This document shows, piece by piece, positions 24,001 to 36,000 of a stretch of DNA of 64,000 nt. Numbering within the stretch: the stretch's first letter is position 1; each line of letters opens with the position of its first letter. The stretch covers positions 1 through 64,000 of the forward strand of contig JAZJZK010000015.1 in NCBI GenBank assembly GCA_040389905.1, in the 5' to 3' direction. The stretch comes from Gemmatimonadota bacterium (GTDB lineage Bacteria; Gemmatimonadota; Gemmatimonadetes; Gemmatimonadales; Gemmatimonadaceae). A program made the position numbers.

Positions 24001-27000
24001 CGAAGAGATGTTGAAGGCGCTCGTGGACTCAGGAGCGCTGCAAGAACGAGCGGGAGTCTGGAACGGGTGGGATGCGGACGCGCCGGGGTTACCGCGCTCG
24101 ATACGAGATGCGGTCACGGCGAGAGTGGATCGCTTGGCGGAACGCACACGCTCCGTCGCAAATCTCATTGCAGTCATCGGCACGCGTGTGTCCCATGATG
24201 CCATCGTCGCCGTGAGCGGGTTGCCAGAGCGTGACGTCCTCGCCGCGCTCGACGACCTCCGTGCACATAGCGTCATGACGGAAGACGCAAAGGACGGAGT
24301 GGTTCGCTATGAGTTCATGCATCCACTCATGCGCGATGTCCTTTATGGTGCACTCGGCCTGGCAAGACGTCAGCTGTTGCATGCGACCGTCGCTGAGGCG
24401 CTCGAACAGCAGTATGGTGCGCAGGCGAGCGCCCACGCCGACGAACTCGCGTATCACTTTACCCGCGCGCAGGCGCGCGGCGTCCTGAGCAAGGCGGCGC
24501 GGTACCTTGCCGAAGCGGGCGCGAACGCGCTTGAACGCCACGCGAATCGTGAAGCGGCGGACTACCTGAGCGCCGCACTCGACCAATACGACCGCGAGTG
24601 TCCGGACGGTGATGACGCCTCGATCGACTGCGACGCCGTGGTCGAAGGGTTGGCGCGCGCGCGTCAACGGCTCGGCGAGTACGCGGTGGCAACCGGGCTG
24701 TGGGAACGAGCGCGCGAACTCGCGGCGCGGGCGGCGGACACGCCGCGCATCGCTGCCATCGAACGGCGGTTGGGGCTCGGCGCCTATTGGAGCGGACGAT
24801 ATGCGGATGCGCTTTCGCACTTCGGCGTGGCGTTGACTGTGGGAACGGGAGCCGACGAATCGTTGCGCGCACGTGTGCTCGCGGCGCAGGCAATGACACT
24901 TCATGCGCTCGGTGATCGCGATGCCGCGCGCGGCGTGGTTGACGATGCACTCGCCGTCGCCACTCGGCTTGGCGACGCCGGTGTTCTGGCGCGCGTGCTG
25001 CGAACGTCGCTGCAGTTGCACCTGTTCGTCGGCGACGCGGAAAAAGCGCACGTCGACGCGCTGCGCGCAATCGGCTTCGCGGCTACTGCTGGTGAACGCG
25101 GCGTCGAGTGGTCAGTCCACTGGGCGATGGCAATCGTGGGAGGACTCACCGGAGACGGCGCGATTGTCGCAGAGCATCTCGCGAAGAGCGAGCAGTTGGC
25201 GGACGATCTTCACTCGCCTGTTCTCGGCTGCTGGACGGCGGAAATCGCCATCGAATACGCGGCCGGCATCGGCGATTGGGACGCTGGCCTCGCACGTGCC
25301 GAGCAGGCGATACCACTCGCGCGCGCGTTGGGACAGCGGGTGTTGCTCCCCCGACTCCTCGTGTGGGCTGCGCTCATTCATCTGCACCGCGGAGCACAAG
25401 CGCGGGCAAAGGAATACCTCGACGAAGGGTGGGCACTCCTTAGTAGTGACGTCGTCCATCATCTCCGCAATGTGCACTCTGCCGTGCCCGTGCACGCCGG
25501 CCTCGTCGCGTACCACGTGTCCGTCAGTGAACATGAGCGGGCGCTCGAGATCGGTGAAGCGGGACTCGCACTCGTCGATCGAAGCGGATACGTGGCGTGG
25601 GGAATTCATCGACTGCTTCCCAAGATGATCGAAGCCGCGCTCTATCTTGGAGACCTGGGGCGAGCGGCTCGCTATCTCGACCGGTTACGCGATGATTCGA
25701 TCAAGCTCGGACATCGGCTTGGACTGGCGTGGGTCGATACCGGTGACGCACTGATCGCGATGCTGCGACAGGATCACCAGAACGCCGCGGTGCTCCTGCG
25801 TCGTGGTGCGGACGCACTCGATGCCGTGCCCTGGGTGTTCGATGCAGCGCGCCTGCGCTGCAAACTCGCGTCGGTGCTCACGACGCTCGGCGACCGCGAC
25901 GGCGCGGCACGCGAGCTTCGCCGGGCGCACGACGTGTTCGTGCGATTAGGGGCGGAAGCAGAGCTGACATATGCGCGTGAGCTCATCAGGGAGCGAGGGT
26001 TTCGCCCACCGGCGCGCGCCGTGTCGTCCGGCGTCGCAGGCCTGACGGGAAGGGAAGTGGACATCGCGAGACTGGCAGGTGCGCACAAGTCGAACAAGGA
26101 AATCGGCGCGGAGCTCGACATCTCACCGCGCACCGTGAGCACGCACATGTCGAACATCTTTGCCAAGTTGGCGGTGGCGTCGCGTGGGGAGCTCGCCGAT
26201 GTGGCCCGAACGCTGCTCGCTCGCTGACGCTCGCTCGACGGAACAAGCCCAAGCCCGTCGTTACCGTCAAGGGAGCGCCAGCGAGCGGGCCGTTACCCGT
26301 CAAGTGAGCGCGAGCGATCGGACTGTCCGCTCGCCGTTGCCGGCCACCAGTTCCACCGCCCCGCGATTGTGAGCAGCGCCGGACCAACCGCAAGACGTAT
26401 CAGCGTCGCGTCGAGCACGACGGCGGCTGCGAGCGCAACCCCGAGGATCTTCACGATGACGAATTCGCCGAGCGCGAACGCACCGAACACGATCACCATG
26501 ATCGCCGCCGCACTCGTGATGACACGCCCTGAACGTGCGACACCGGAGACGAGTGCCATCCCTTCCGAGGCTCCGCGACGCCGCGCCTCCGCTATTCGCG
26601 AGATGAGAAAGACCTCGTAATCCATGCTCAGGCCGAAAACCACACAGAAAACGAGCAGGGGAATCGCGACAAAGGTACCGTCGAGCGGACTATCCAGACC
26701 CAAGAGGCGAGCACCGTATCCATCCTGGAACACCAACACGACGACGCCGAGCGCAGCCGCGACGGCGAGAAGATCGAGTGCCACCGCCTTGAGCGGAACG
26801 AGCACTGACCGGAAGCCGATGAGCAACGCGACAAGGATGCCTCCCACCACAAGGCCGACAACGCGCGGCATACGCCTGAGGATGGCATCGGCGTAGTCTG
26901 CGTTGAGCCCGGGCACGCCACCGACACTTATCGTCACGCCTGGGATGCCGGCAATGCGCGCCACATCGAGGTTGCGAAGGTCCCGTGCGATCGCGGTCAG

Positions 27001-33000: not shown

Positions 33001-36000
33001 GCCTGCACCACTCTCGAGCAGGTCGCCACGCGCTCGGAGCGCATGCACGACGCGTTCAGCGTTCTGCATCGAGACCTCCGGCAAAGAGCGTCGCGATTCG
33101 CTCTGGCGTTCCGAAGTTGTCGGTGCGGATCAGTGCGTCGGGAATTTCAGCACCGATCGCGCGCTCCGTCCATGCAATCAGCTCGAGAATACGCAACGAG
33201 TTGATGAGTCCACCCACGAAGAGTGGCGTGTCGGCGGAGATGACAATGCCGTCGACCGCAACGCGCGAGTTGAGCCAATCCAGCAGCTCGTCGAGGAAGC
33301 TCGCGCGGATATCGTTGCCCACGACGCTCGCGCTCATGCGGCCACCTCGGACAGCCCGGCGACACCACGCCAGGAAGTCGCTTCGAGGTGGTCGATCATA
33401 CGTCCCCAATATTCGCGAACCTGTGGCGCGGGAGCTCCGAGAAGTTCGGTCGCGCGCGCCGTTACGAACTCCTTGGGAAGGCCGAGTTGTGGCAGGAAGA
33501 ACGAGAGTGCCTGCGTCACCTGCCGTAGGCGCGCGTGCCCTGTTTCCTCGATTGCACTCGCGAAGAGCTCCCACGTGGCAAGATCGCCGAGCGACGGTGC
33601 AGCGATGCCGCGCCGGCGCCAGTTGATGTCCTGAGACCACCGCGCGTAGCTCTCGTCGAGCAATTCGCTGAGTGGAATGGCGCCCGCGCCGGCGCACAGG
33701 TGTACTGTTTCGCCGTCGACGGCATCGCGCAGCGCAATGCGCGCAATGCCGTCCGCCACGTAGTCCGCCGTGACGACGTCGAGTGTCGATCCAGCGCCGC
33801 CGGGAATCATCGCGGCGAAGCCATCGTGGAAAAGGCGAAGGGCGCGGTGAATGACGTTGCGCTGCGTTACCACTCCGGACGCGTCGTCGCACGCGACGGT
33901 GCTGGAACGCAGAATCACGACGTCGCGTCGTGCGGCGCGGACAAGTGCCTCGGCTTCGGTCTTCGACTGCTCATACGCATTGACCCAGCCGATATCCGCC
34001 GTCGAGGCTCCCTCGGCGGCCTCCACAATGCGTCCCGTTCGGCGACCCGCGACGAAGGCCGTGCTCACGTGCGCGAGCCGCGTGACATGCGGGCAGTCCG
34101 CAATCACGTCGAGGAGGTGCCGCGTCCCATCGCGATTCACGCTGCGAGCGAGGTCGAGTGGCCGCGAGAACGTCGTGTCTGCCGCGAGATGCACCACCGC
34201 GCTCGTGCTTTGTGCGACCCATGCACGCGATGCCTTCGTGAGTCCGAGGCCGGGCTGCGTCACGTCGCCGTCGAGGATGGTGACGTCGCTCGGAATGCGC
34301 AGGCGGCTCGACAGCTCAAGCCACCGCGCGCGACTGCGTACCAGGACCGCAATGGCCGGCGGCGATTCACACGCTGCCCACTGTTGAAGCACCAGTCGAC
34401 CGAGCGCGCCCGAGGCGCCAGTGACGAGCACGCCGCCGCTCGCGTGCGCGAGATGGTTGTCACGATTCGCGTGCATCATACCTCCAGGGCCAGCCCACTC
34501 CAGTGGGCGCCGTATCCGTACGAGAAGAGGAGCGCGCGATCACCGGGGCGCAGTGCGCCAGTCGCGAGTGCATCGCGGAGATTGATGAAGTTGTCGCCGG
34601 CCAGCGTGTGGCCATGGCGGGCCACGTTCTCCGACCAGAGTCGTGCGCGCGGAAGCCCAGCGAGACGAAGCAGGATGTCCCAGCTGCGCTCACTGACGTT
34701 GTGCGGGAGTACCCAGTCGACGTCGCTCGCACACCAGTTCGCGCTTTCGAGCGTGCGCCGAATCGCGTGGACGGCCGTTGGGAAATACGACGCCACGACT
34801 TCTTCGCGCATCGCAGCCGCGTCCCAGTAGTAGCCCTTGGTGATCGTCGCCGCGCCGGCGATGCGATTGCGTGCCCCGCCGCGCTCGAGCAGCACGGCGC
34901 ACGCGGCGTCCGAAGTGCAGTTGTAGATCGCCTCTCGACCCGCGAGGAGGGGATAGAATTCGCTCGCAACGCACAGGGCGCGGTCGATTCCTTCGGCAAC
35001 CATCATGGCTCTCGCGACGCGGATCGCGCCGAACAGTGTTGCGCACGCCATTTGGTCGAGTGCGAGCACGGCAGCGTTTTCGAGCCCGAGTTCGTACTGG
35101 AGCCTCGTTGCCGGAAAGCGGAAGCGATTCGCGGTGCACAGGCCGGCCGCGCCTTCCGCCGCGTTGTTGTGCGACGCGAAGGCCATCGAGCTGGGCGTGC
35201 CGCCATAGATGAGGAGTCCGATGCTCGTTGGATCGAGCTGTTCCTCCCAGATGAGGTTGCAGGCCGCACTCCGCGCGAGATCGTATGGCGTCTCGTCGGT
35301 CGCGACATGCACGGAGCCAAAGCCGAAGCGCTCGAGCATCGCGTGGTCGCTTTCGAGGGCGTTGTCGTCGCCGAGCTCGCTGACGGTCCGGCTTGTCGCG
35401 GGAAAGACGTGCGAAGTGGCGCGGACCGAGACGGACTCGTGGGGCTGGGGCACGTTGGCTCCGGGGGTAGTCACGGAGCGAAAGGTCGTGTCGGGGTGGT
35501 AAACGGATGATCCGTCAGGTTACGTAGAAGGCCGCGCAACCCTACGTAGACGGACTCCCGGCGTCCGTGCGCCGGACATCAGCTGTGACAGGTGCTCAGG
35601 AGCCAGCCGCAGCCTACAGATTCTCAGGGGGTGTGGCGCGCGGGTGGCGCTTCACCAAACTCGCAGGGCCTAGGTGCGGGCCCTTCGCGGAGTTTATCCT
35701 CGAGGAGCGCGAGCGACGAAGGGCTCAGGCGACAAAGCGGGCGGAACGCCACACCCCCTGACGATCTGATGGCTGCGGCTGATCACTGAGCACCTGTCGC
35801 ATCTGAGGCTGGTGGGGCCGGGGACCGTGCCCGCGAAAGTCAGTTGTGACTTCGCATCAGCAGCCAGACCCCGCTCACCAGCCCAATAACCACAACGGTC
35901 GCGCGCACGTACTGCTGCGGCACTCGCTGCGCGCCTTTTGACCCCAGGTACCCGCCCGCCATCGCCGCCACTGCCATTGTGAGCGCCACCGGCCAGTCCA

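Follow-up and report, generated by a model that had tools for sequence, protein, structure and literature searches.

The window analysed here is a stretch of 64,000 nucleotides of contig JAZJZK010000015.1 (assembly GCA_040389905.1, a Gemmatimonadota bacterium). Nine genes, all open and full length, occupy positions 26293..35453 of its minus strand. Seven of the eight gene junctions are overlaps of 4 or 14 nt, and the remaining one is a gap of 19 nt, which confirms the closely packed nine-gene operon of the preliminary description. In the direction of transcription the genes encode a KAS III-fold enzyme, a stand-alone thioester reductase, a carrier protein (ACP1), an amino acid:[carrier protein] ligase, two ferritin-like proteins (FER1 and FER2), a DUF3419 transferase, a GNAT acyltransferase and an MMPL-family exporter; the family labels given earlier agree with the Pfam and NCBIfam profile matches.

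Gene order is kept among Gemmatimonadota more widely than first claimed (58 loci). All nine genes were found in order in 31 of these loci, and 21 more are consistent with this order as far as the contig end. Six loci were flagged: L048 has an additional radical-SAM gene up to the contig end, L037 and L065 have a different tail, L079 is without FER2, and L047 and L063 are partial, L047 containing only the genes for a PPTase, ACP1 and the ligase. The six-gene core was found in order in all 11 Acidobacteriota loci having these genes (34-52% identity), and the order KAS-SDR-ACP-ligase-FER1 is common to the two phyla down to 34% identity. The nine genes are not the fixed unit they had been taken for; the conserved unit is a core of five to six genes followed by exchangeable tails. 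The ligase had also been described as rare and as occurring mostly in other settings, but 6 of 24 further genomes from the genus carry it, and close ligases stand in the operon setting in at least 52 of the 58 loci. When four genes were compared with the closest locus, third codon positions had changed much more (0.48-0.53 identical) than first and second positions (0.72-0.86), as would be expected for genes that code for protein and are under selection.

The ligase (32161..33069) is a tRNA-arm-less SerRS homologue of 302 aa. Its residues 54-292 match 3mey, the structure of Bll0957 (E 9e-35), and of a 527-aa type-2 SerRS only the catalytic part matches. With 163.5 bits it stays below the cut-off (357) of the NCBIfam equivalog NF005479, and thus appears to represent a related subfamily. 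In the alignment to 3mey, Cys121 and Glu166 are present in 78 of 78 rows and Cys266 in 77 (one gap); we take these residues to be the zinc ligands. Ala268 stands at the position of Bll0957 Ala281, where 54 of 56 rows from Gemmatimonadota and all 11 from Acidobacteriota have alanine, whereas 7 of 11 ligases found in other settings have glycine there. Alanine at this position presumably favours glycine as substrate, and by this determinant the predicted amino-acid pocket matches that of a glycine-type enzyme. The ACP1 gene (33056..33337) overlaps the ligase start by 14 nt. Its match to PF00550 (E 6e-4) is marginal, 20.4 bits against a cut-off of 20.8; ACP1 was matched in 68 of 80 loci, and its serine (Ser47) is invariant in these 68 copies and in the window.

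The KAS III-fold enzyme (34476..35453, alternative start 35474; PF08541, 62.6 bits) has four residues, Cys137, His251, His282 and Asp287, that are invariant in 34 of 34 alignment rows. The Cys-His-His triad suggested before does consist of invariant residues, but it leaves out Asp287. His282 and Asp287 align with the GH...D motif of CerJ, and the acyl-transfer triad of ChlB3 is given in the relevant passage of PMC9573744 as Cys113/His296/Asp301. Among 99 full-length representatives of the family, His282 was present in 94 and Asp287 in 96, whereas His251 was present in only 60; the complete Cys plus His-x4-Asp set (C137/H282/D287) was found in 91. His251 was nevertheless found in 104 of 104 motif matches among the operon copies, and so a Claisen reaction is still conceivable for this enzyme; DpsC, according to the published passage compared, also has two histidines. 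The Cys-His-Asn triad of the FabH/OleA/NocG type is not present, His282 occupying the Asn position in all 34 rows (catalytic residues of NocG, PpyS and OleA as in Table 1 of PMC9486936). Compared with solved structures, the profile matched ordinary FabH enzymes best, with CerJ (E 7e-9) and ChlB3 (E 1e-8) far down. Judged from its residues, the protein is probably an acyltransferase using the Cys/His/Asp set of CerJ and ChlB3. It shares with them the cysteine and His-x4-Asp, but it is distant and keeps the first histidine, and, unlike in CerJ and ChlB3, the acceptor is probably an aminoacyl carrier.

The thioester reductase (SDR; 33334..34476) scored 129.9 bits with PF07993, above cut-off, and 98.1 bits with TIGR01746, below the cut-off of 213.35. 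It contains the Rossmann motif GxxGxxG (G20/G23/G26) and the catalytic set T139, Y168 and K172; in 33 rows Tyr168 and Lys172 are invariant and Thr139 is kept in at least 90%. Its best solved relative is the R domain of MxaA (E 5e-37), which releases an acyl amino alcohol. The enzyme also matches the fatty acyl-CoA reductase 7eoz (E 8.5e-24), and because of this resemblance it could act on an acyl carrier instead.

FER1 (g02198; 31352..32107, alternative start 32164) was not found to be missing from any intact operon. Its model (pLDDT 90.9) has the acyl-ACP-desaturase fold: the fit to 1oq4 gave Z 19.2 and an rmsd of 3.3 over 232 residues (next fold, Z 16.7), the top Foldseek rows were plant desaturases (TM 0.51-0.58), and DesA2 was matched with E 3.7e-9. 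In the residue register taken from the R2lox and DesA2 alignments, Glu61, His95, Glu144, Glu174 and His177 are kept, and Gly92 stands at the position of the first bridging Glu. Among 146 locus matches this position is Gly in 55, Ser in 91 and Glu in none, and among 120 further homologues it is Ser or Ala in 119, one being unmatched. FER1 thus shares its fold with the soluble acyl-ACP desaturases, DesA2 and R2lox, but in all the sequences matched the first bridging Glu has given way to Gly, Ser or Ala. Reading g02198 as a desaturase holds as far as the fold goes and fails for the canonical metal site (two ExxH motifs, 2 His/4 carboxylate), and the supposed invariance of the diiron E..H motifs breaks down at the first motif of FER1.

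FER2 (30793..31332) is a small, dispensable ferritin-like protein. Its model (pLDDT 90.9) has several tied top folds (Z 17.7-18.1), aldehyde deformylating oxygenases among them, and the candidate metal residues are Glu18, His44, Glu48, His51, Glu98, Glu129 and His132. It is absent from L079, L095 and L096, in the latter two together with a second carrier (ACP2) and a dehydrogenase, and in L180 it is fused to an AcpP-like, fatty-acid-type carrier domain. The Acidobacteriota loci have ACP2 as a dedicated second carrier; the operon in the window contains neither an acyl-activating enzyme nor a second carrier. The motif pair QExxH and HxxDExxH, which the relevant passage of PMC12101540 gives for CylC-type dimetal halogenases, was found in neither FER1 nor FER2.

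FER2 is followed by the DUF3419 (BtaA-family) SAM-dependent transferase (29669..30796; PF11899, 182.9 bits, cut-off 28.2), which is 25-29% identical to full-length rhizobial DUF3419 matches. Among 101 loci with enough flank, the SAM enzyme is of the DUF3419 family in 45, a class I methyltransferase in 52 and ICMT-type in 3, one locus having none; these loci are related, include near-identical populations and at least one locus counted twice, and are therefore not independent. None of the 101 has two of these SAM enzymes: the three types, unrelated to one another, are strict alternatives. BtaA is normally neighboured by the methyltransferase BtaB. No BtaB gene adjoins the DUF3419 gene at the locus; the next gene is that of the GNAT (40 loci). 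The likeness to betaine lipid synthesis is accordingly one of family membership, whereas the neighbour, the exchangeability with methyltransferases and the low identity to rhizobial members differ. The GNAT acyltransferase (28542..29672) matches PF13527 and PF00583 above cut-off in its N-terminal half and probably has a second GNAT domain in its C-terminal half (weak match, E 0.04); no significant solved relative was found by sequence, and the gene is absent from the Acidobacteriota and ICMT tails. The last gene encodes the MMPL-family exporter (26293..28545; PF03176, 221 bits in two stretches). Lipid-handling genes recur in the tails, other tails having a START-type protein.

Upstream of the first gene, at 35510..35549 (minus strand), two CTACGT direct repeats 22 bp apart are followed by CGGAT. 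Of 45 Gemmatimonadota loci, 34 have the repeat pair 5' of the operon's first gene, against 0 of 10 Acidobacteriota loci, and in the whole own genome it matched 4 times (0.57 expected); it is probably a regulator site. Convergent with the operon, and beyond the coordinates given in the preliminary description, lies a gene for a LuxR-type AAA ATPase regulator (23183..26227, plus strand; AAA_16 and GerE). Within the genus, 5 of the 6 genomes that have the ligase and 1 of the 18 that lack it contain an orthologue (at least 64%), and the regulator gene adjoins the operon in 10 of 58 loci. The conserved repeat and the co-occurring ATPase suggest a dedicated regulator, and the LuxR-ATPase is the probable cognate one. 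At 22175..23083 (minus strand) lies a truncated gene, the remnant of one for a secreted SGNH/GDSL hydrolase; it aligns at 41% with residues 81-382 of a 429-aa protein of L016, and in close relatives the gene is intact and linked to the operon.

Taking families, residues and gene order together, from which all the following steps are drawn, the probable task of the operon is to couple glycine with a fatty acid and to export the product after further decoration. Our proposal, to which we give slightly less than an even chance, is an NRPS-free route to an N-acyl-glycine thioester, released reductively as an ethanolamide-type lipid that is oxidised, SAM-modified and exported. The ligase would activate glycine with ATP and attach it to the phosphopantetheine arm of ACP1. 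A carrier of the fatty-acid type (ACP2 in Acidobacteriota, presumably the housekeeping ACP in the window genome) would supply an acyl chain, which the KAS, acting in place of an NRPS condensation domain, would take up on Cys137 and hand on to the glycyl amine. FER2, with an acyl-CoA dehydrogenase where present, may tailor the chain on the second carrier. The reductase would convert the N-acyl-glycyl thioester to aldehyde or alcohol, giving an N-acylethanolamide skeleton. FER1 would catalyze a step that requires O2, at a dimetal site in which one coordination position is open; whether this is desaturation, hydroxylation or halogenation is the least certain part. The SAM enzyme would cap the product, DUF3419 adding aminocarboxypropyl or methyl and the other tails methyl; the GNAT would acylate it and the MMPL protein would export it. 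With the LuxR-ATPase switching on the operon at the CTACGT repeats, an inducible surface lipid or signal would be likelier than a bulk membrane lipid. Several points count against the proposed route: the invariant His251 of the operon's KAS copies, the better matches of the KAS to ordinary FabH enzymes, the resemblance of the reductase to 7eoz, the lack of an acyl-activating enzyme and a second carrier in the window's operon, the three conserved histidines of FER2, and the reduction of L047 to PPTase, ACP1 and ligase.

The roles could also be reversed, the reductase making a fatty alcohol from the acyl carrier, the KAS esterifying it with glycyl from ACP1, and the SAM enzyme alkylating the free amine to a betaine-like ester lipid. 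CerJ, as described in the published passages compared, transfers an acyl group to a hydroxyl; the similarity to 7eoz, the aldehyde deformylating oxygenases among the folds tied for FER2, and the match of the ICMT-type tail enzyme to the PEMT phospholipid methyltransferase family would also fit. We consider this unlikely, since the MxaA R domain is by far the better match of the reductase (see above), whose gene lies beside that of ACP1 in both phyla and is retained where ACP2 is lost (L096). There is a similarly small chance that the target of the diiron proteins is nitrogen, namely that of the amino acid on its carrier, which would be oxidised (to hydroxylamine, oxime, nitro or N-N), yielding an N-oxidised small molecule as in AurF-type clusters. 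FER2 has three conserved histidines, as in N-oxygenases, and possibly, at the sequence level, the 3 His/4 carboxylate set that PMC12101540, in the passage concerned, calls largely unique to these enzymes; for FER1, the second-ranked Atlas cluster has AurF among 28% of its members and VlmB is at rank 23 of the Foldseek matches, and the nocuolin locus, as far as its published passages go, also combines a DUF3419 gene with a ketosynthase and acyl-ACP dehydrogenases. The extra histidine of FER2, however, lies in the first helix pair and is shared by a Dps-like protein, FER2 can be dispensed with and is linked to a carrier of the fatty-acid type, AurF ranks 25th for FER1 by fold (Z 13.2 vs 19.2), and NocG, in the passages compared, has Cys-His-Asn plus Glu, unlike the operon KAS.

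Quite improbable, in our view, is a PLP-free route to sphingoid-like bases, with C-C bond formation by the KAS between acyl chain and amino acid alpha carbon, release of a 2-amino-3-oxo-alkanol by the reductase, N-acylation by the GNAT and a head group from DUF3419. The invariance of both His251 and His282 in the operon copies speaks for it, and ceramide-like chemistry would be in keeping with a lipid exporter, a GNAT and an enzyme of desaturase fold; but we know of no precedent for taking the alpha proton from a free glycyl thioester without PLP, neither a carboxylase nor a hydroxyacyl dehydrogenase that could provide an aminomalonyl extender was seen in the operon, and the GNAT is missing from two tail types and has no similarity to the frame beside an SPT-like gene in L037 (E 0.23). 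That the operon acylates or aminoacylates an existing envelope lipid or polymer, Dlt-like or aminolipid-like, with no free product, appears very unlikely. The best NCBIfam matches of ACP1, both weak, are DltC and an ornithine-lipid carrier, and ligases of other settings adjoin hexapeptide acyltransferase genes, but the intact catalytic residues of the thioester reductase imply reductive release, and no MBOAT or glycosyltransferase gene was seen in core or tails.

In its boldest form, which we regard as doubtful, the N-acyl-glycine route would stand for a class of assembly line with three proteins (a tRNA-synthetase homologue, an amide synthase of KAS III fold and a free reductase) in place of an NRPS module, and with anandamide-like N-acylethanolamides, or else new amino-lipids, as its de novo products; FER1 would then represent a new class of dimetal oxidase or halogenase, the missing bridging Glu leaving a site for substrate or halide. 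If true, this would be the first defined pathway for an amino acid:carrier-protein ligase. In the operon the ligase comes with its downstream enzymes as a complete set, compact enough for reconstitution in vitro, and FER1 adds a conserved enzyme of the ferritin-like group whose ligands are non-canonical; the tail variants are a natural set for learning the role of DUF3419, and the carriers are environmental lineages known almost only from metagenomes. No description of the pathway was found in the literature searched. The earlier interpretation is thus supported in part: the pathway is undescribed, works on carrier proteins and leads to a product that derives from an amino acid and is probably lipid-like.

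Bll0957 (Bradyrhizobium) and Atu2573 (Agrobacterium), whose biological role is given as unknown in the relevant passage of a 2022 review (PMC9437257), share with the operon ligase the tRNA-arm-less SerRS core, the Cys/Glu/Cys zinc site and a neighbouring carrier protein. The operon ligase differs in having a KAS, a reductase and diiron proteins around it, so that the loaded carrier has a plausible fate; this setting was not found described for Bll0957-type ligases, and the claim of a new context for the class is supported. The cyanobacterial nocuolin (noc/cly) locus has, in the passages compared (PMC7923214, PMC5333925, PMC9486936), a similar kit of DUF3419, ketosynthase, acyl-ACP dehydrogenases, methyltransferase and dimetal enzymes, and methionine C2-C4 enter its product; the nocuolin papers, in these passages, do not assign the methionine step to DUF3419, and we infer that link ourselves. 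NocG, in contrast, is described there as a Cys-His-Asn Claisen enzyme fed by a FAAL, and the same passages mention no aminoacyl-carrier ligase. Columbamides, acyl amides modified by CylC-type dimetal enzymes according to passages of PMC7923214 and PMC8406957, and myxalamid likewise combine an acyl chain, an amino acid and a reductase, the MxaA R domain being the closest solved relative of the operon reductase. The operon, however, has diiron proteins without CylC motifs and is devoid of adenylation domain, condensation domain, PKS and FAAL; in place of these it has a homologue of class II synthetases and an enzyme of KAS III fold.

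Nine genes, all open reading frames, occupy the minus strand between 35453 and 26293 and are joined by seven overlaps (4 or 14 nt) and one gap of 19 nt. By Pfam and NCBIfam they encode, in this order, a KAS III-fold enzyme (KAS), a male-sterility-type reductase, a carrier protein (ACP1), an amino acid:[carrier protein] ligase, the ferritin-like proteins FER1 and FER2, and DUF3419, GNAT and MMPL proteins. The frames are open and the family labels agree, and the operon is present as claimed in the preliminary description; a chance or shadow-frame origin was rejected. The operon occurs once in its genome, in which the one PPTase is located elsewhere.

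The ligase was aligned against one genome per species. The best 80 of the 107 confirmed matches, which give lower bounds, comprised 58 loci from Gemmatimonadota, 11 from Acidobacteriota and 11 others, mostly from Myxococcota and one from an actinomycete, in which the ligase stands in other settings. Within these 80 matches, at least 31 of the 58 Gemmatimonadota loci have all nine genes in order and at least 21 agree up to the contig end (6 were flagged), which bears out the conserved gene order reported before; the first six genes are in order, with 34-52% identity, in 11 of 11 Acidobacteriota loci. The reported rarity was not reproduced: 24 other genomes of the genus included 6 with the ligase, and 16 from two other families had none. 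Of 301 phylum genomes, counting the operon's own, 8 had a match to the FER1 profile; 7 of 70 other members of the family did so too, two of these copies being broken. The system has a patchy distribution and is not very rare. In 300 genomes drawn from the phylum of genome G331, the FER1 profile had one true match, in the centre genome, and five weak ones. Three of the weak matches were rejected as members of another family with a complete ExxH motif and no operon genes nearby. A separate desaturase-like family with complete ExxH was seen in three genomes (loci L175-L177), in L175 between amidophosphoribosyltransferase-like and transketolase-like genes (labels by eye). On plasmids, KAS, GNAT and DUF3419 had no relatives but distant ones (identity at most 33%), and three neighbourhoods of GNAT and DUF3419 matches held gene sets other than that of the operon. 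Pairwise identities of ligase and partner genes correlated at 0.47-0.62, values that reflect kinship and were not taken as evidence. Listings from the literature searched, with most subscription journals outside its coverage, showed no description of the operon. The operon is real, conserved and, as far as searched, undescribed; it is a new arrangement of known families with one atypical metal site.

A core from KAS to FER2 is followed by one of three tails. In a metagenome scan with the Acidobacteriota-type FER1 alignment 80 of 159 matches were kept, and the ligase preceded FER1 in 76 of these 80; in the other four FER1 started less than 130 nt from the contig start. The first tail is DUF3419-GNAT-MMPL; in 11 loci (L021:14470-15471 and ten others; three label changes on a quick KAS tree) an inserted radical-SAM/SPASM gene separates GNAT from MMPL. 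The second consists of another carrier protein (ACP2), an acyl-CoA dehydrogenase, a class I methyltransferase, a small unknown protein and a START-type protein, and the third of a single ICMT/PEMT-type methyltransferase. Among 101 loci with enough flank, which are related to one another and include at least one locus counted twice, the SAM enzyme was DUF3419 in 45, class I in 52 and of ICMT type in 3; one locus had none and no locus had two. Since nearly all loci carry one SAM enzyme and never two, a SAM-dependent step seems to belong to the pathway. A PPTase gene lies before KAS in 19 loci and before ACP1 in one. Locus L047 (8989-14027) contains only the upstream repeat motif, PPTase, ACP1, ligase and regulator, and represents the remnant of a deletion or else a minimal glycyl-carrier unit. 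Directly after the ICMT-tail operon of L037 (12687-16865, minus strand), and likewise in L065, lies a convergent set of a serine-palmitoyltransferase-like gene (534.8 bits, cut-off 640), an unlabelled frame, an SDR and a membrane gene, possibly just a common insertion site. GNAT and DUF3419 had no significant solved relative by sequence. Brevibacillus locus L182 (884-11068), with DUF3419 among HMG-CoA reductase, UbiA, PEP-utilising enzyme, GNAT and AMP-binding genes, is another biosynthetic setting of DUF3419.

The ligase matched the structure of Bll0957 (3mey) with E 9e-35, and the three zinc ligands are kept. Among the best 80 of 107 matches, Ala fills the column of Bll0957 Ala281 in 54 of 56 rows from Gemmatimonadota and in all 11 from Acidobacteriota, whereas 7 of 11 ligases from other settings have Gly there. 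Ala at this position presumably limits the pocket to glycine. A review (PMC9437257) names Gly, Ala and Ser among the substrates used by the ligase class, whose biological role it calls unknown. Longer ligases (about 400 aa), mostly from Myxococcota, adjoin a carrier or hexapeptide acyltransferase gene in L073-L075, L084, L085, L091 and L094, a different setting of the same class. In Thermopolyspora (L086:4490-19842) the ligase accompanies a carrier, an acyl-CoA dehydrogenase and PKS/NRPS-looking genes; this is a cultured strain, in which the ligase product might be traceable.

Cys137, His251, His282 and Asp287 of KAS were invariant in 34 of 34 rows, so that the Cys-His-His triad proposed previously stands but left out an equally invariant Asp. 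His282 occupies the position of Asn in FabH, and His282 and Asp287 align with CerJ; FabH-type fatty-acid initiation was rejected, the Cys-His-Asn triad being absent. Acyl transfer by ChlB3 uses the triad Cys113/His296/Asp301 (PMC9573744). In a census of 99 full-length representatives from 150 listed family members (lengths outside 280-350 aa omitted), 94 retained His282 and 96 Asp287, but only 60 had His251, which indicates that the wider family rests on Cys/His/Asp, and this would favour acyl transfer. Against this reading, His251 is kept in every operon copy and FabH structures rank above CerJ in the profile search. The quick KAS tree separated the two phyla (support 100) and was uninformative on the direction of transfer. 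KAS relatives also occur in the long proteins P0274, P0298 and P0328, one with two C-terminal KAS stretches, one of twice the usual length and one joined to an AMP-binding domain. Among solved structures the reductase matched the MxaA R domain best (E 5e-37), then a PKS R domain and a fatty acyl-CoA reductase; because Thr139, Tyr168 and Lys172 are conserved, reduction appears likelier than non-redox release.

The predicted models of FER1 and FER2 were confident, with a pLDDT of 90.9 each. The fold nearest to FER1 was that of stearoyl-ACP desaturase (Z 19.2, rmsd 3.3 over 232 residues), the next match having Z 16.7. In alignments with R2lox and DesA2, Gly92 takes the place of the bridging Glu in the first ExxH motif; the position is Gly or Ser in 146 of 146 locus matches. 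Of a further 120 homologues, 119 have Ser or Ala there, and the divergent L180 copy has Gly. The diiron E..H motifs, described as invariant, are so for the five other FER1 ligands, whereas the bridging Glu of the first motif is found in 0 of 146. Judged by sequence register, FER1 is predicted to be without this Glu, and Glu88, His145 or His208 might stand in as a ligand. The gap may be functional, a reading for which CylC-type halogenases, with their predicted open site for chloride, provide a precedent (PMC12101540); CylC membership itself was rejected, the CylC motifs being absent. For FER2 the top folds were tied (Z 18.1, 17.8 and 17.7) at 11-13% identity, and therefore no function was assigned. 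The profiles of FER1 and FER2 matched with a probability of only 26%, which argues against a recent duplication; prediction of their complex (score 0.00) gave no evidence either way. L079, L095 and L096 lack FER2, the latter two along with ACP2 and the dehydrogenase, and in L180 FER2 is fused to an AcpP-like domain. From this joint loss and the fusion we infer that FER2 acts on a fatty-acyl carrier.

Gene content and order, residues, folds, tail exchange and the fusion were observed directly, and from them we infer each reaction and the order of steps. Glycine would be loaded on ACP1 and N-acylated there by the KAS-fold enzyme, reductive release would give an ethanolamide-type skeleton, FER1 and FER2 would oxidise it, and the product would be capped by the SAM enzyme, acylated by GNAT and exported. 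This scheme is tentative, its chance falling somewhat short of even. An ester-linked betaine-like lipid is an unlikely product, and an N-oxidised one is equally unlikely; a PLP-free sphingoid-like base seems rather improbable, and it is very improbable that the operon modifies an envelope component already present.

Upstream of the operon, at 35549-35510, lie two CTACGT direct repeats followed by CGGAT. The repeat pair stands before the first gene of the operon in 34 of the 45 Gemmatimonadota loci whose flank was long enough and in none of 10 Acidobacteriota loci, and matched four times in its own genome (0.57 expected); a scan for sigma-70 promoters and terminators gave counts at or below shuffled ones. 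A LuxR-ATPase regulator gene (23183-26227) is convergent to the operon. Orthologues of at least 64% identity occur in 5 of 6 ligase-bearing and 1 of 18 ligase-lacking genomes of the genus, two more of the latter having a relative at 41-48%, and motif-bearing genomes without an adjacent LuxR-ATPase gene have a copy elsewhere at 46-52% (5 of 5 tested). Kin are not independent, and the association therefore supports a link of regulator, motif and operon but is not a test of it. A remnant of a secreted SGNH/GDSL hydrolase gene, lacking both ends, lies at 22175-23083 (minus strand); an intact 429-aa relative is linked in seven close relatives (among them L016-L019, L060 and L185), mostly preceded by a second motif copy in opposite orientation. 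The regulator and motif persist in L185 (genome G004), although the stretch retrieved does not contain the operon, and in L181 (G196), where the operon is reduced to a decayed FER1, both of which are signs of operon loss.

Several families of the operon are common to the nocuolin locus. Methionine C2-C4 enter nocuolin according to the accessible parts of PMC9486936, PMC7923214 and PMC5333925; these do not state aminocarboxypropyl transfer by DUF3419, with which such entry would be compatible. The operon appears to work most like the acyl-amide pathways terminated by an NRPS reductase, although it is not itself an NRPS.
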